The notes beneath the pieces are model-generated. The model was not told the DNA's origin and searched no databases. It worked only from the letters and a program-made list of their open reading frames with translations. DNA of 20,000 nucleotides from positions 60,839-80,838 of IMG/VR virus record IMGVR_UViG_3300003364_000021, one strand, 5' to 3'. Made by a program: the position numbers and the translations under genes. Source of the stretch: an uncultured virus (IMG/VR IMGVR_UViG_3300003364_000021). Lineage: Duplodnaviria; Heunggongvirae; Uroviricota; Caudoviricetes. Below are positions 1,114 through 16,407 of the stretch, piece by piece (the stretch's first letter is position 1; each line of letters opens with the position of its first letter).

Positions 1114-1345
1114 ATTGATACCGACAGCACTGGATGACCTCGCGGGAATACCGAACAAGGATCTGTCGACCGGTGGGAAAGTGATGGTGGGTGACCACAA
1201 CTGGCGTCGCGCCCCATTGTCCCACCGCGTGCGAATATTTCTGTTCGGGCGCAGGGAGCGCATCACGCATCTGGGCGTGCACTGCACCATCGCGTGGTGG
1301 CGGGAGCAGCCCTATCTGATCTGGATTGCCGAGGCGCGTCCATGA
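1106..1345 (+). CDS. Hypothetical accessory protein (79 aa)
   Basis: GTG at 1106 overlaps the gp27 end and the stop overlaps the next ATG (ATGA). It fills the operon gap; no family recognised. Confidence 0.55.
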   Translation: MDELIPTALDDLAGIPNKDLSTGGKVMVGDHNWRRAPLSHRVRIFLFGRRERITHLGVHCTIAWWREQPYLIWIAEARP

Positions 1346-1638
1346 TCCGCGCCATTGAATTCCCCAACCCGGCTGAGTTCCGCCGCCAAAAACTGCCGGG
1401 CAGTTTCCACATCGATCTGACCCAAGGCGGCCCGGACGGCGCGGCCCTCTGGTTTTACTGCCCCTGCGGCTGCGACGGTCCGTCCCGGATCATTATCGGC
1501 CTGCGCGGCAAGCCCGCGTCTACCCCGAGCTGGGATTGGAACGGGTCCATGTCCGAGCCGACGCTCACGCCGTCGGTCAATCAACTGCGTTGCGGCTGGC
1601 ACGGCTGGCTGCGCGACGGCTACTGGGAGGTTGCATAA
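1342..1638 (+). CDS. DUF6527-like Cys/His (probable Zn-binding) protein
   Basis: FYCPCGC ... WDWNGS..EPTLTPSV...CGWHGWLRDGYW pattern. ATG 1342 is coupled to the upstream stop, with GAGG upstream. Confidence 0.75.
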   Translation: MIRAIEFPNPAEFRRQKLPGSFHIDLTQGGPDGAALWFYCPCGCDGPSRIIIGLRGKPASTPSWDWNGSMSEPTLTPSVNQLRCGWHGWLRDGYWEVA

Positions 1639-1928
1639 TGTCTGAACTGGTTTTCATCTGGGCTGTTTATCTGCTGGCGCAATTCGCCGACGTGGCGTCC
1701 ACGCGCGCCGCCCTGCGCGGCGGGCTGGTCGAGGCCAACCCGCTCATGGCCCGCCTCATGGGCCTGACGGGCAATTGGTGGGCCGTCAAGCTCGGCGTGG
1801 CACTCGCTGCTGGCATTCTGCTGACGTGGCTGGGTCAAGAGCGCTGGATCATGCTGCTCGCCGCGATCACCGGCGGCGTGGCCGTGAACAACTGGCGGCT
1901 GGTCCGCAAGCATCGGGAGCGGCGCTGA
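1638..1928 (+). CDS. Small membrane protein, DUF5658-like
   Basis: Hydrophobic helices with D..ST..AL..G..EANPLM and a C-terminal V.NN motif. ATG 1638 overlaps TAA. Confidence 0.65.
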   Translation: MSELVFIWAVYLLAQFADVASTRAALRGGLVEANPLMARLMGLTGNWWAVKLGVALAAGILLTWLGQERWIMLLAAITGGVAVNNWRLVRKHRERR

Positions 1929-8893: not shown

Positions 8894-9853
8894 ATGAGCA
8901 CCCCCACCCCCTTTGTCGTCGATCCGGTCCTGACCGCCATCGCCGTCAATTTCCGCAACCCCGACATCTCGTTCATTGCCGACGAGGTCATGCCGCGCGT
9001 GCCGGTCATGGCTACGGATTTCAAATGGACCTATTTCCCGCCTGAGCAGATGTTCACGGTGCCCGACACGGAAGTCGGCCGCAAAGGTCTGGTCCAACAG
9101 GTTGAGTTCACCGGCGAAGAGCGCACCTCTTCGGTCAAGGACTACGGTCTCGACGACGTGGTGCCGCAGCGCGACATCGATGCCGCCCGCGCCCTGCGCG
9201 CCGCTGGCAATTCGGCTTTCGATCCCGAGGCGCGCGCCGTCGAGGGTCTGGCCCATCTGATCCAGCTCGACCGCGAAAAGCGCGTGGCCGCCATGGTGCA
9301 GGACGCGGCCAACTATGACGCGGACAAAAAAGTGGTGCTCTCGGGCGCGGGCCAGTTCAGCGATCCCACGTCCGATCCCATCGGCGTGATCTCTGCCGCC
9401 CTTGATGCCACCTTCATCATGCGCCCCAACGTGGCCGCGATGGGGCGTAAGGCCTGGACGGCGCTCTCGACCCATCCCGATATCCTGAAGGCCATCAACC
9501 GGACCTCGGGCGACAAGGGCCGCGCCGGCCGCGAGGCGGTGGCGGAGCTTTTCGAACTCTCTCAGATCCTCGTGGGCGACAGCTATATCAACTCGGCCCG
9601 CAAGGGTCAGACGGCTGCCTTCGAGAAGGTCTGGGGCGGCAATATCGCCCTGATCCATCGCAACACTCAGGCCGGTCCGGACGGCACCGCCCCCGCATGG
9701 GGCTGGACGGCGCAGTTCGACGGGCGCGTCTCGGGGCGCTTCTTTGACCCCAAGGTCGGCCTCAAAGGTTCCACCACGCTCCGCGTAGGCGAGCAGGTCC
9801 GCGAAGTCATCGCGGCTCCGGCCACCGGCTATCTGATCGAGGATGCGGCATGA
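8894..9853 (+). CDS. Major capsid protein
   Basis: 319 aa with DPVLTAIA..F.N...IADEVMPRVPV, L.REKRVA, SDPI..I and RPN...MG...W..L..HP. AGGAG SD and expected position. Confidence 0.88.
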   Translation: MSTPTPFVVDPVLTAIAVNFRNPDISFIADEVMPRVPVMATDFKWTYFPPEQMFTVPDTEVGRKGLVQQVEFTGEERTSSVKDYGLDDVVPQRDIDAARALRAAGNSAFDPEARAVEGLAHLIQLDREKRVAAMVQDAANYDADKKVVLSGAGQFSDPTSDPIGVISAALDATFIMRPNVAAMGRKAWTALSTHPDILKAINRTSGDKGRAGREAVAELFELSQILVGDSYINSARKGQTAAFEKVWGGNIALIHRNTQAGPDGTAPAWGWTAQFDGRVSGRFFDPKVGLKGSTTLRVGEQVREVIAAPATGYLIEDAA

Positions 9854-10206
9854 GCTATCTCATCAAACGCACCGTGATCGCAGCCAAGCGGCTGGAGGCG
9901 GGAACGACCGTCCCCGCGCAAAAAATCGGCGGGGAGGCGCAGATTGCGCGCCTTCTCGCCCTGGGCGCAATCGAAGAGGCCGGGGACGCGGCAGACACCG
10001 CGCCGCCGCTTGTCCTCGACGACGCGCTGCGCGTGGCCTTGACCAATGCCATCAACGCCCTGCCCGGCGACGCCTTCGACAAGAGCGGCAAGCCCAAGGT
10101 CAAGGCACTGCAGGACGCGCTTCCCGGTTTGGCCGACCAGATCACCGCCGCCGCGCGGGATTCGGTCTGGGCCGGGATGCAGGCCGCCGCCAACGCGGCA
10201 TCCTGA
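9850..10206 (+). CDS. Mu gp35/HI1506-like post-capsid protein
   Basis: LLALGAIEE N-terminal module and F.KSGKPKVKAL...ITAA.RD..W C-terminal module; immediately after the capsid gene. Confidence 0.6.
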   Translation: MSYLIKRTVIAAKRLEAGTTVPAQKIGGEAQIARLLALGAIEEAGDAADTAPPLVLDDALRVALTNAINALPGDAFDKSGKPKVKALQDALPGLADQITAAARDSVWAGMQAAANAAS

Positions 10207-10360
10207 AATTCCAGAGCGAAAGGATCAATCGCGAACCTCACGGGCACATAGGGCGACAACCAGACCCCTCCGGAGGCGATCCGAGTAGGCGCGGCCCACG
10301 CGAGTTGGAGCCTGCAACGTCTGAGGAATGGACGTGACAGCCGGGAGAGACCGGCACCAA
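10207..10360 (+). ncRNA. Candidate structured RNA / leader element upstream of the acb2-like gene
   Basis: Multiple pairings: CAGAC(10261-65)/GTCTG(10319-23), CCT-CCGG-AGG, TCCGA/TTGGA, GTAGG/CCTGC, CGCG/CGCG, and GCCGG-GAGAGA-CCGGC(10340-55). Confidence 0.45.
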
Positions 10361-10382
10361 ACACCCAACCCGGAGGCGCGCC

Positions 10383-10610
10383 ATGGCCGAGACGATCAAG
10401 AGCACCGACGACACCCGGGTCGAAAACAGCCCCGTGCGGCACAGCTACCGCAAACTGGGCGACATCGAGAAGGCCCGGGTCGAGGCGATCAAGGATATCG
10501 GCCAAAGGTTTCTCGACGAGATCGCCGCCGATCAGGGCCGCGAGTTTTCCCTCGCGCGCACCAAGATCGAAGAGGCCGTCATGTGGGCCGTCAAAGGGGT
10601 GGCCCGCTGA
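10383..10610 (+). CDS. acb2: Acb2/Vs.4-like (Acb2/Tad1 hairpin) cyclic-oligonucleotide sponge, anti-CBASS candidate
   Basis: YRKL...E......IKD.G..F and RE.SLARTKIEEAVMWAVKGV resemble Acb2 (YR.L..EEI.....KE.G..F) and T4 Vs.4 (AKTKLKEASMWA..AV) as recalled. GGAGG SD. Confidence 0.75.
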   Translation: MAETIKSTDDTRVENSPVRHSYRKLGDIEKARVEAIKDIGQRFLDEIAADQGREFSLARTKIEEAVMWAVKGVAR

Positions 10611-11035
10611 TGGCCTACCTGACTGTGCAAGACATGATCGACCGCTACGGCGAAGGCTTCCTCGCCGAAGTGACGGCGCGTGACACAATCCCCGGCGTGA
10701 TCGGTATGACCGCGCTGCAGGTGGCCGTGGACGACGCCGTGTCTGTCGCCGAGAGCTATGTCGCAGGGCTTTACAATGCAGACAATCCGCCCCGTGTCCT
10801 GACGATGCATACTGCGGCAATTGCCTGGTACCGGCTGCTCGGTGCGCGGGCCGCCGCCTTTGACGGGGCCGAAGAGGGCTATGAGGCCGCGATCAGCTTT
10901 CTGCGCGAAGTGCGCAAGGGCGAGGCCTCGCTCGGAGACGAGACGCCCGAGGACACAGGCCGGGGCAATCCCCAGCTACCCCAGATCAGCGCGCCGGAGG
11001 GCACCTTCACCCGCGACAGCCTGAAGGGGTTCTGA
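10610..11035 (+). CDS. Head-tail adaptor (Mu gp36 / DUF1320)
   Basis: MAYLTVQDMIDRYGE, A..DA....ESY..G.Y, IAWYRL, YEAAISFL..V.KG.ASLG, and a terminal F.RDSLKGF. Confidence 0.88.
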   Translation: MAYLTVQDMIDRYGEGFLAEVTARDTIPGVIGMTALQVAVDDAVSVAESYVAGLYNADNPPRVLTMHTAAIAWYRLLGARAAAFDGAEEGYEAAISFLREVRKGEASLGDETPEDTGRGNPQLPQISAPEGTFTRDSLKGF

Positions 11036-11036
11036 G

Positions 11037-11540
11037 ATGGTCACCCTCACAGTCAGCCTCGACAGTCTCGACTTTGACAGCGCCATTGCCAATGGCCTGC
11101 GCCAGTTGTCCGACCTCACCCCTTTGATGCGCCGCATCGGCACCGTTCTGGAAACCTCCGTCTCGGAGCGGTTCGAGAAGGGCGAAGGCCCGGGCGGCAT
11201 CGCGTGGCCCGTCTCGCACCGCGCGCGCGAGTTCGGCGGCAAGACGCTGGTCGACAGTACACGCCTGCGGGACAGCATCGTGACAGAGGCTGACAGCCAG
11301 TCCGCGCGCATCGGCACCAACGTGCCCTACGCCGCCACCCATCAGTTTGGCGCGTTCATCGAGCCGAAGGCCGCGGGCGGTGACGCCACGGCCAAACTCG
11401 CCTTCACCCTGCCCAATGGCCAATTCATCATGGTCGACCAGGTCGAAATTCCAGCCCGGCCCTTTCTGGGCTTTGACGACAAGGACGAGACCGACATCGT
11501 GGACACGGTCGAGACCTATCTCCGCGAGGTATTCGCATGA
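11037..11540 (+). CDS. Phage virion morphogenesis protein (Mu gpG / P2 gpS family)
   Basis: DLTPLM..IG, RF.....P.G..W, L.D..RLR.SI, IGTNVPYAA.HQFG, IPARPFLG. Confidence 0.9.
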   Translation: MVTLTVSLDSLDFDSAIANGLRQLSDLTPLMRRIGTVLETSVSERFEKGEGPGGIAWPVSHRAREFGGKTLVDSTRLRDSIVTEADSQSARIGTNVPYAATHQFGAFIEPKAAGGDATAKLAFTLPNGQFIMVDQVEIPARPFLGFDDKDETDIVDTVETYLREVFA

Positions 11541-13755: not shown

Positions 13756-16407
13756 ATGGCATTCCGTGTCCAGGGCGAGATCCTCATGGACGCCGATCAG
13801 GCGAAGGCGGAGTTGCAGGCCACCGGCACCGCCGCGAAATCGGCCTCCCAGGACATTCGCGGCGTCGGCACCCAAGGTGCAACCGCCGCACGCGGGGTCA
13901 AGCAGCTTGAGACGGCCGCCAGAACCTCCGCTACGGGCCTTAGGGCGGCAAGCTCGGCCGCCGAGGTCAATGCAGCGGCGACCCAGAAAATGGCCTCGGC
14001 CAATCGCCTCGCCGCAGGCTCGATGGGCAACCTCGTGGCGCAGGGCAATGACGTGTTTGTCATGCTCGCGGCGGGTCAGAACCCGCTCACGCTGGCCATT
14101 CAGCAGGGCACGCAAATCACTCAGGTGATCGGGCCGCTCGGGGCGGCGGGCGCGTTCCGGGCATTGGGCGGGGCGGTTCTCGCGATGCTGAGCCCGATCA
14201 ATCTGATCACCATCGGCGCACTGGCGGCGACCGCTACCGTGGTCAATTGGTTCATGTCCTCCTCGGAAGAGGCCGAGAGTTTCGCGGACAGCGTCGAGGC
14301 GCTCGAGAACCGGATCGACAGCCTGAGGGACAAGATCGCCGAGGCCTCATCCACCCGGCTCGAACTGGCCGACCGCTTCGGCGAAGGCTTTGTGGACCGC
14401 GCCCAAGACCTGCTCGACCGGATCGTCGAGGCCGAGAAGCGTATCACCGCCCGTGAGACCGGCGAAAACATCGGAGATTTTCTGGGCGAAACCGGCGTGG
14501 ACTTTGGGCGCATCAACCGCAACCGCAACCTCCTGCCGCAATCGGTCGACGGCGGGCTCGACGTGGCCGAGGGTCAAGCGCTCTCCACGCTCGCTTCTGA
14601 GTTCGACCTCAGCGGTCTCTTTGGGCGGATGCGTGCCGGGAGCCGTGAACTTGTTCAAGACGTTCTCAACGATTTCGCCGCCCTTCAGGAGGCCGCGCAA
14701 GGCACGGTCGAAGAACAAGCCGCCGCCGTCGACGCGCTGATCGAGAGCTACACCCGCGCCGCGCTGGCCTCGGGGGAGACGTCCGAGGCAGAGCAAGACC
14801 GCCTCCTGACGCTTGACAAAATGCGTCTGACCCTGGCCGAAGTTGCCAAGCTGCAAGGGGAAGACCCCGCCCGAAACCGCCAGACCGAAGAAATGCTGAC
14901 CTTCCTCGATCTGGTGACCAAAAGCACCGGCGAGCAGCTGAAGGCCGAGGCGGCGGCGCAGGCCACGCTCTCGACCATGATCCAGCAGAATGGCGTGGCC
15001 GAGGCTATCGCGCGGGCAGGCGCGGACAGTGCCGAGGTGACGCGGTTGCGCGCGCAGTTCGCCCTCGATGCGGCGCTTGCGGAGGCCGACGCCTCTGGCG
15101 CGAGCGAAGAAACAAAAGAGGCCATGCGCGAGGCCGCACAACACACCTTTGAAATCGCGACGAGCGACATGTCCGGCAGCATCCGCGCGGCCGCCGACGA
15201 GGCCGCGCGGCTCTCGGCCGAGGTGCGCGGTGCCGTCGATGCCATGTTCGACCTGCAATCCCAAGGCCAGGTCGGGTTGGAGAACGCCCGTATCCGGGCG
15301 GAGTTTCGCGACGATCCGATTGGGCGCGCCGGAGCCTTGGCCGGTGCTAGGTTCGACCGCGAGACGGCGGTAATCCGGGGCGAGGCCAGCGGCGATACGG
15401 CAACAGTCGATGACCTAAATGCGCGCCGGGACGCCGTTGTCGAACTGGCCCGTGAGACATCCCGCCTCAACGAGCTAGCCCGGCCGACGCGGTCCGGCAG
15501 CGGCGCGCGTGGCGCATCGGCCAACGAGACCCTGCGCGAACAGCAGGCGCTCGACCGGCTGATCGAGAGCAAGCGGCGCGAGATCGAGGCGCTGCGCGAG
15601 AGCGACCCGGTGCAGCGCGAGATGATCCGCCTGCGCGACCGCCTGACCGCCGCGACGCCAAAGCAACGCGCGGAGATCGAGGCGCTCGTCGAGGCCCATG
15701 AGAACGAGCGCGTCGCCATGGAGCGCAAGGAGGAATTCAACAACGCCGTCGACGACGTGCTGCTCGAGGCCGAAAGCCTCCGGGACGTCTGGGAGGGGAT
15801 CGGCGACATGGTCATCCGCGCGGCCAAGGAAGCGCTGATCCTCGGCACCGGCCCGCTCTCCGGTCTCTTTGGGGGCAGCGGTGGCGGTGGTGGCGGCCTT
15901 GGCGATCTCTTTGGTCTCCTCTCGGGCGGGTCGCTGATCAATATTGCGTCTGGCGGCTTGCCCGGCGAGATGGCGCCCGGCTTTGCCAGTGGCGGCGATC
16001 CTCTTGTCACCCGTCCCGGCCTCCTCTTGGGCGCGGGCACAGGCCGGGGGGACAGGATCCGCGCGATGGTAAGCGCCGGGGAATTCATCATGACGGCCGA
16101 GGCCACGGCCCGCAACCGCGCGGTGCTCGAGGCCATGAACGCAGGCGCGATCATTCCAGGCTTTGCCGGGGGCGGCCTGCCCCTGCCCGCGCAGGCTGCC
16201 GGTGCGACGCGAGCCCAGAGCGGTAGCGCGGGCCCGCGCATCGAGGTCGTGGCCCGCGTCGAGAACGGCAGCATCGTCCAGGACGTGCGCCGCATATCGG
16301 GGGAAGTGGCCGTGCAGGTGACGCGGGCCGGGATTGAGCAATTCACGCGCAGCGGCCTGCCGCAGGCGGTTGATCGTATCAACAAAGACCCCCGGAGGCG
16401 CGGTTGA
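13756..16407 (+). CDS. Tail tape measure protein
   Basis: 883 aa, Ala-rich and helical. Lambda-type N-terminal motif Q.NDV.V.LA.GQNPL..AIQQG.QI, and C-terminal FASGG...G.GTGR.D.I.AM.S.GEFI..A.AT. Confidence 0.92.
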   Translation: MAFRVQGEILMDADQAKAELQATGTAAKSASQDIRGVGTQGATAARGVKQLETAARTSATGLRAASSAAEVNAAATQKMASANRLAAGSMGNLVAQGNDVFVMLAAGQNPLTLAIQQGTQITQVIGPLGAAGAFRALGGAVLAMLSPINLITIGALAATATVVNWFMSSSEEAESFADSVEALENRIDSLRDKIAEASSTRLELADRFGEGFVDRAQDLLDRIVEAEKRITARETGENIGDFLGETGVDFGRINRNRNLLPQSVDGGLDVAEGQALSTLASEFDLSGLFGRMRAGSRELVQDVLNDFAALQEAAQGTVEEQAAAVDALIESYTRAALASGETSEAEQDRLLTLDKMRLTLAEVAKLQGEDPARNRQTEEMLTFLDLVTKSTGEQLKAEAAAQATLSTMIQQNGVAEAIARAGADSAEVTRLRAQFALDAALAEADASGASEETKEAMREAAQHTFEIATSDMSGSIRAAADEAARLSAEVRGAVDAMFDLQSQGQVGLENARIRAEFRDDPIGRAGALAGARFDRETAVIRGEASGDTATVDDLNARRDAVVELARETSRLNELARPTRSGSGARGASANETLREQQALDRLIESKRREIEALRESDPVQREMIRLRDRLTAATPKQRAEIEALVEAHENERVAMERKEEFNNAVDDVLLEAESLRDVWEGIGDMVIRAAKEALILGTGPLSGLFGGSGGGGGGLGDLFGLLSGGSLINIASGGLPGEMAPGFASGGDPLVTRPGLLLGAGTGRGDRIRAMVSAGEFIMTAEATARNRAVLEAMNAGAIIPGFAGGGLPLPAQAAGATRAQSGSAGPRIEVVARVENGSIVQDVRRISGEVAVQVTRAGIEQFTRSGLPQAVDRINKDPRRRG

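Follow-up and report, generated by a model that had tools for sequence, protein, structure and literature searches.

Small phage proteins of the Acb2 family assemble into homohexamers, with three sites for cyclic dinucleotides and two for cyclic trinucleotides, that sequester the cyclic oligonucleotides of CBASS and keep its effector from being activated; members of the family bind their ligands and release them intact, and rescue phage from CBASS. In the late genes of an uncultured Mu-like phage, a 75-aa open reading frame has been proposed (in what is referred to below as the sequence-only reading) to encode a compact anti-CBASS sponge of this kind, inserted between a capsid-associated gene and the head-tail adaptor. 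The locus raises the questions of whether this frame is a gene of the Acb2 family, in what sense it can be called an insertion, and which signals its product may capture.

Gene model and late-region context

The window analysed here (a whole stretch of 20,000 nucleotides, corresponding to bases 60839-80838 of the 80,838-base virus record G000) is the late region of a Mu-like siphophage, carrying genes for Mu Gp27, Portal_Mu, Mu F, the head protease, scaffold, major head protein and Gp36, as well as for a virion morphogenesis protein, tail terminator, tube, chaperone and tape measure. Together with a Mu-type transposase (Mu-transpos_C, 38.4 bits in a 713-aa frame, G000 53959-54135, approximately 7 kb upstream of the window), the Mu-type head genes (Mu Gp27, Portal_Mu, Mu F and Mu Gp36) bear out the earlier view of the phage as transposable. 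Right after the Mu Gp27-like gene (window 1294-1928) we observed two overlapping frames with matches to DUF6527 (61.6 bits) and DUF5658 (34.8 bits).

The small frame itself (Table 1) is real and conserved in database relatives. The motifs quoted for it are present in the translation (YRKL at residues 22-25, IKDIGQRF at 36-43 and REFSLARTKIEEAVMWAVKGV at 53-73), and it has, as claimed, its own GGAGG Shine-Dalgarno sequence and a stop coupled to gp36, the last base of its TGA (10608-10610) being the first base of the gp36 ATG (10610-10612). Almost all protein-database candidates (168/171) match the 75-aa protein at E <= 1e-3, the family domain is found in all 120 homologs among the matches listed, 256 stretches of the viral collection are related to the gene, and its dN/dS against four related prophages amounts to 0.16-0.47; by its homologs, its viral relatives and its dN/dS, the frame is more than a chance occurrence. 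As the Phage_Mu_Gp36 Pfam match begins at gp36 residue 3, we take the gp36 start at 10610 to be correct, and the long frame at 10328-11035 (an upstream extension of gp36) therefore gives no ground against the small one.

Table 1. Window coordinates of the acb2-family gene, its parts and its neighbours (pocket and arm conservation counted over 120 cluster representatives of relatives)
Feature	Position	Strand	Basis or remark
Major head protein	8894..9853	+	phrog_1005, 315 bits
118-aa ORF, upstream neighbour	9850..10206	+	no Pfam family; phrog_2498 (function not known), weak, E 2.7e-5
Leader common to acb2 and sibling gp36	10333..10388	+	blastn, G000 71171-71226 = 30169-30224, 57 nt, 87.7%
Shine-Dalgarno GGAGG	10372..10376	+	6 nt 5' of the acb2 ATG; read from the sequence
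acb2-family gene	10383..10610	+	ATG start, 75 aa plus stop
N-terminal arm, residues 1-21	10383..10445	+	S7, D10, R12, N15, R19 and H20 kept in 110-119/120
Cassette absent from the sibling, ~242 nt	10389..10630	+	gap between blastn blocks 71171-71226 and 71469-71880; borders approximate
Y22 codon	10446..10448	+	= PaMx33/JBD67 Y11 (hhalign, hmmsearch); kept in 117/120
K37 codon	10491..10493	+	= K26 (hhalign, hmmsearch); kept in 120/120
R53 codon	10539..10541	+	= R67 (HMMER to 8ixz/7uq2, MAFFT with JBD67 Acb2); kept in 120/120
T60 codon	10560..10562	+	= T74 (HMMER to 8ixz/7uq2, MAFFT with JBD67 Acb2); kept in 120/120
TGATG, acb2 stop/gp36 start overlap by one base	10608..10612	+	read from the sequence
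gp36, Mu gp36-type head-tail adaptor	10610..11035	+	PF07030, 71.3 bits; phrog_195
Virion morphogenesis (Phage_tail_S)	11037-11540		follows gp36

Scanning of positions 9800-10700 yielded no promoter-like site and a single terminator-like site (minus strand, within chance expectation), and Rfam gave no match in the window. One metatranscriptome run contained 6% of the sampled words, and since its contigs are 85-95% alike to the window they derive from relatives and are uninformative on expression; one of them skips 10358-10530.

With regard to the neighbours, the earlier placement of the gene is right for the adaptor on its downstream side, while the label 'capsid-associated' is not supported for the 118-aa frame upstream (no Pfam family and a weak PHROG match), the major capsid gene lying one gene further upstream. 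This 118-aa frame is kept in all Mu-like relatives and is fast-evolving (dN/dS 0.21-0.41). The same slot is occupied by acb2 (gp34) of JBD67, which, like the phage of the window, is a transposable siphophage, and in which acb2 lies between the capsid region (major head gene plus one small frame) and the head-tail adaptor; according to the 2022 preprint (10.1101/2022.03.30.486325), JBD67 needs acb2 against CBASS.

Family assignment, fold and ligand pockets

Residues 21-75 of the protein match the Pfam family PF24729 (Acb2/Tad1 hairpin) over the whole profile (positions 1-58 of 58; E 7.2e-17, 61.8 bits against a curated cut-off of 27), and JBD67 Acb2 (gp34, NC_042135) matches it at 59.6 bits. 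Searched against solved PDB chains, a profile of 25 relatives recovered PaMx33 Acb2 (8ixz and 8h2j, E 2e-4), Acb2 homolog 43 (9ptq, E 2.4e-4), T4 Vs.4 (7uq2, E 2e-3) and Tad1 chains (E 0.027), and the best match of the single sequence in the PDB was homolog 43 (E 0.041). The alignment by hhalign with 17 JBD67-type Acb2 proteins reached a probability of 94.2% (E 1.2e-7) and covered the first helix only; BLASTP against JBD67 Acb2 was not significant (E 0.86). The AF2 monomer model (pLDDT 87.9) is a two-helix hairpin (helices 27-46 and 53-74), as the sequence-only reading had described it. In the VIA structural alignment T4 Vs.4 ranked first (Z 6.4, rmsd 2.1 A over 59 residues, 29% identity), followed by PaMx33 Acb2 (Z 6.0, rmsd 1.5 and 1.8 A over 57 and 58 residues); unrelated hairpins scored up to Z 5.8, yet with an rmsd of about 6 A. 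Of the comparison by HMM and Foldseek that had been put forward as a check, the HMM side was positive (the Pfam match above, and Acb2, Vs.4 and Tad1 chains in the profile search); Foldseek against the PDB gave no match at E <= 0.001, its first eight rows being Vs.4 and Acb2 chains with weak E-values. We consider that the fold, a plain helical hairpin, is insufficient alone and is sufficient in combination with the sequence profiles, and that by Pfam, profiles and fold the protein is a short single-domain member of the Acb2 family. The proposed Acb2/Vs.4-like identity is therefore upheld, with Pfam, the PDB-chain profile search, hhalign and the fold all in agreement.

As an annotation this is unsurprising: UniRef/NCBI name close homologs 'Acb2/Tad1 domain-containing protein' or 'DUF7681 family protein', and current domain databases would already label this new member. 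NCBIfam gave no family for the 75-aa protein, PADLOC returned no match, and PHROGs matched only families of function not known. PF24729-type proteins are numerous, with 2,626 representatives at E <= 1e-3 and 847 at E <= 1e-10. Many of the best 150 of these 2,626 representatives (P0243-P0391) are 100-285 aa long with the whole 75-aa unit at their C-terminus, and may be N-terminal fusions or the outcome of start calls placed too far upstream in GC-rich DNA. A 47% identical homolog is present in Dunaliella viridis virus SI2 (HQ332136.1 / NC_023841.1, 17428-17649), a record with an algal host as written that may represent a phage of an associated bacterium.

The ligand pockets of the family are known from PaMx33 Acb2 (PMC10312549). 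There, two protomers grip the cyclic dinucleotide with Y11, which stacks on a base, and K26, which forms a salt bridge, and the cA3 phosphates are contacted by R67 and T74 from adjacent protomers; mutation of Y11/K26 to alanine costs the protein its cGAMP binding, and that of R67/T74 its cA3 binding. The counterparts in the window protein are Y22, K37, R53 and T60, with the spacing found in PaMx33 (15 residues from Y22 to K37 and 7 from R53 to T60). Across the Acb2 family as a whole, the trinucleotide-pocket pair is variable. Because hhalign aligned the first helix only, the equivalence of R53/T60 relies on the weaker HMMER and MAFFT alignments together with the shared full Pfam profile. L25 is invariant and corresponds to L14 of PaMx33, which that protein sets, along with P90, against the adenine (10.1101/2025.08.24.671296); the C-terminal QP tail that carries the P90 contact is absent from the 75-aa protein. 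As judged from these alignments, the residues lining both ligand pockets of PaMx33 Acb2 are conserved here.

The likeness to the Acb2 proteins of PaMx33 (8h2j, 8ixz) and JBD67 accordingly extends from the Pfam domain to the Y/K and R/T residues and L25, and the PaMx33 fold superposes on the model within 1.5-1.8 A; unlike both, the window protein (75 aa, versus 94 aa in PaMx33 and 108 aa in JBD67) is devoid of the middle region and of the QP tail, its conserved arm before the tyrosine is 11 residues longer, and the likely host of its phage is an alphaproteobacterium instead of Pseudomonas. T4 Vs.4, with which it has the C-terminal helix motif in common, has a middle region and belongs to a lytic phage. 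HMMER places R53 on Asp 62 and T60 on Thr 69 of the 7uq2 chain, which would be the published D61 (in place of R67) and T68 (in place of T74) if the chain numbering is offset by one; Vs.4, with Asp where the window protein has R53, is reported not to bind cA3 (PMC10312549). In Tad1 (7uav, 8kbb-8kbh) a C-terminal hairpin with the same R/T pair binds cyclic trinucleotides at a trimer interface and supports the hexamer (PMC10680739), and the earlier remark that Tad1 shares the C-terminal hairpin motif holds, both for the PF24729 domain and for the R/T pair in Tad1 chains.

Compactness in itself is common in the family. It is correct that the protein is shorter than the Acb2 with which it was compared, lacking both a central insertion and a QP tail, but this is nothing unusual, as 27 of the 44 tested Acb2 homologs covered here from Table S2 of Hadary et al. 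(44 rows out of the 46 Acb2 proteins stated; 10.1101/2025.08.24.671296) are <= 80 aa. One of these rows (26), a 74-aa JBD67-like short form, is given there as blocking both tested CBASS systems (10.1101/2025.08.24.671296). The nearest tested relative that we found, picked by eye among these 44 Table S2 rows, is Acb2 homolog no. 13 (locus L084; 39% identity over 64 aa, E 5e-9), an 80-aa protein of a different phage that shares with the window protein the arm features, Y-R-K-L, the Lys and the Arg, and that differs from it in an arm longer by 4 residues and in two Thr in place of R59-T60. Its row reports blocking of type I Thoeris, cUA CBASS and cGAMP CBASS (10.1101/2025.08.24.671296); we read the entry 'n, N/A, y' as plaque-validated, since 10 of the 44 Acb2 rows then count as Thoeris inhibitors, as many as the text states. 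The last-helix motif of the subclade to which the window protein belongs was found in 0 rows of the Table S1 homolog lists (10.1101/2025.08.24.671296), and hence the subclade seems not to have been sampled in the 2025 survey.

A cassette behind the adaptor leader and its alleles

G000 contains two matches to Mu-type transposases (at 14960 and 53959, ~39 kb apart), from which we conclude that it comprises two collinear tandem Mu-like elements; their DNA identity is 67-89% (blastn). An acb2 homolog is found only in the second element, to which the window belongs, and the first (the sibling) is without it. In the sibling, the same leader and GGAGG run straight into gp36 (alignment by eye), with 108 nt separating the 118-aa frame from gp36, and the stretch absent from it (i.e. 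the cassette of Table 1) spans acb2 from codon 3 to codon 75 together with the initial 7 codons of gp36. The term 'inserted' is thus apt insofar as the sibling has the leader and Shine-Dalgarno sequence leading into gp36 and lacks the gene, and inapt insofar as the site is not a new one, being the acb2 slot of JBD67. The gene is a portable accessory cassette that draws on the adaptor gene's leader and Shine-Dalgarno sequence and is coupled to that gene in translation; the two siblings differ by the presence or absence of these ~242 nt. The intergenic DNA that precedes the shared leader (10207-10332, ~126 nt) has no sibling counterpart, promoter-like site or Rfam match. After gp36, where the window has Phage_tail_S, the sibling has nothing, and a 35% identical copy (G000 26516-27016) lies upstream of its protease, an arrangement also seen in L024, L025, L170, L176 and JBD67.

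Presence and absence of the gene recur across related phages. A scan with the major head protein returned 53 loci, 46 of which reach gp36 and were scored (the other 7 being not scorable): the gene is present in 30 (including 11 copies of the phage in the window) and missing from 16 (9 of them copies of the sibling element), where the gap measures 70-109 nt. On a second viral contig (79.6 kb; L164, L167), an element with acb2 is likewise paired with one that lacks it. Searching by the C-terminal motif instead, we found 80 loci, comprising 30 of the Mu-like type (12 identical, 18 at 68-77%) and 50 in which the homolog is 49-59% identical and no flank resembles the head/tail genes of the window; 62 neighbours collected in 23 of these 50 loci include Sak4-like, SSB, ParB/methylase, DNA polymerase, terminase, endolysin and other genes. 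That the position of acb2 varies was already pointed out in the 2022 preprint (10.1101/2022.03.30.486325).

The gene also varies in sequence among phages that are otherwise close. In comparison with three relatives whose major head protein is 95-97% identical, Acb2 is 69-73% identical and has the highest dN (0.22) and dN/dS (0.36-0.47) among the 7-8 genes compared, the three counting as one observation since they share one allele group; in comparison with a fourth, more distant relative (L022), its dN/dS of 0.16 is not the highest. Positive selection was considered as an explanation for these ratios and rejected, as all values are below 1, the comparisons in which acb2 ranks highest involve one allele group, and L022 does not follow the pattern. 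Across 15 distinct alleles of the Mu-like lineage, 32 of the 75 sites are invariant and K37, R53 and T60 never change, while position 22 is occupied by Tyr (11 alleles), Pro (3) or Cys (1); the closest sister phages have Pro instead of Y22, and a Pro-22 allele is also found in the prophage of the L089 genome.

Predicted signals, competing readings and host defences

On the analysis as a whole, the 75-aa protein is predicted to be a signal sponge, a reading to which we assign a probability of roughly 0.85, and the conserved pocket residues make cyclic dinucleotides and, to the same degree, cA3-type trinucleotides probable ligands. The protein would be made from the head-gene transcript by means of the adaptor gene's own leader and would assemble into a hexamer, in which the Y22/K37 pocket may bind 3'3'-type cyclic dinucleotides and the R53/T60 pocket cA3-type trinucleotides; with the cyclic di- and trinucleotides of the host CD-NTase sequestered, effectors of the phospholipase or NucC type would stay off. 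Production would go along with that of the late head genes, presumably at the stage when CBASS is thought to fire.

The ligand is nevertheless not fixed by family membership, as Acb2 homolog 43 (a 76-residue chain of two long helices with no middle region, in this respect like the window protein, and without the Tyr of the Y-R-x-L motif that is Y22 here) binds the Thoeris signal 3'cADPR through an N-terminal strand and does not block CBASS (10.1101/2025.08.24.671296). A sponge of the same fold could accordingly target 3'cADPR, alone or with CBASS signals, if the arm of the window protein built a pocket in the way this strand does. Ten tested Acb2 homologs block type I Thoeris (10.1101/2025.08.24.671296), and homolog no. 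13, which blocks it along with both CBASS systems, shares with the window protein the D-x-R and R-x-x-Y-R-x-L of the arm. Moreover, the arm (pLDDT 62-68 in the monomer model) is conserved as tightly as the pocket residues among the 120 representatives, and two of the five lysogen genomes have TIR-domain frames. Against this stand the intact Y/K and R/T pockets of the 75-aa protein, and the observation that the 3'cADPR residues T4, H5, L6 and V7 of homolog 43 have no clear counterpart in it, with K19 set on K37 (by-eye alignment). Furthermore, PaMx33 Acb2 does not bind gcADPR (PMC10680739), and the TIR frames of the lysogens gave weak matches to the ThsB model, with no ThsA among the 4 frames scanned. 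We consequently regard a Thoeris-directed sponge as improbable in comparison with the CBASS-directed one. A further form of the idea, which we advance tentatively, is that the arm may stand in for the absent C-terminal tail, either altering an existing pocket or creating another, by which the alphaproteobacterial subclade would sequester a third class of signal (e.g. Thoeris 3'cADPR, as its nearest tested relative seems to do) besides cyclic di- and trinucleotides.

The position of the gene amid structural genes and its translational coupling to the adaptor gene could also be taken to mean that the product is a small factor serving the structure or assembly of the head-tail joint, with a likeness to Acb2 that extends to the shared helical hairpin only; helical hairpins are common, and the homolog of Sinorhizobium phage Aussie likewise lies amid connector genes. 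We judge this to be very unlikely, given that 16 of the 46 related loci (the sibling element included) are without the gene, that its neighbours in the 23 sampled distant loci are replication, terminase, lysis and other genes, that the Pfam score exceeds the curated cut-off more than twofold, and that the ligand residues are nearly invariant (117-120/120). That the protein is Tad1, with which it has the Pfam hairpin domain and the R/T pair in common, is scarcely credible, as its residues 21-75 out of 75 are already hairpin and leave no place for the extra N-terminal domain that forms the gcADPR pocket, the hairpin begins at about residue 87-102 in solved Tad1 chains, the Tad1 proteins in the Table S2 rows covered here measure 98-148 aa, and the 25-relative profile matches Tad1 chains at E 0.027 versus 2e-4 for Acb2 chains.

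For the preferred reading, a sponge of CBASS signals, the defences of the hosts are of interest. Among genomic copies of the gene, those in Roseovarius records come closest (68-81% identity), and the majority of the remainder are from Alphaproteobacteria. Of 81 genomes sampled within the nearest named host genus, to which the L089 genome belongs, 9 contain a CD-NTase domain that scores above the cut-off, as does one of the five lysogen genomes; SMODS was absent from the 80.8-kb virus record, as expected for such a record. The L089 lysogen genome has three CBASS-like operons (L136, L137, L138), one with HORMA, cyclase and NucC beside an AAA ATPase fragment, one with phospholipase, cyclase and E2, and one with E2 and cyclase near CapP. 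The prophage Acb2 of this same genome has Pro at the position of the base-stacking Tyr. In type III CBASS, NucC is switched on by cA3. As this is the ligand of the R/T pocket, a sponge with two pockets is plausible in these hosts.

With these results the range of the anti-CBASS sponge family widens to Mu-like prophages of Alphaproteobacteria from marine and soil settings, for which we found no discussion of Acb2 in the literature searched. The new points are modest, i.e. the cassette polymorphism between siblings, the conserved arm and the Tyr/Pro alleles. The first is a natural example of gene travel, in which a ~240-nt cassette appropriates the adaptor gene's leader and ribosome site, one sibling prophage having it and the other not. 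The others, with alleles that differ at the base-stacking Tyr among phages whose capsids are 95-97% identical, offer a compact system for studying how sponge specificity evolves; should the reading of the arm as a route to a third signal be true, the Tyr, Pro and Cys alleles at position 22 in near-identical phages would represent ongoing specificity switching.
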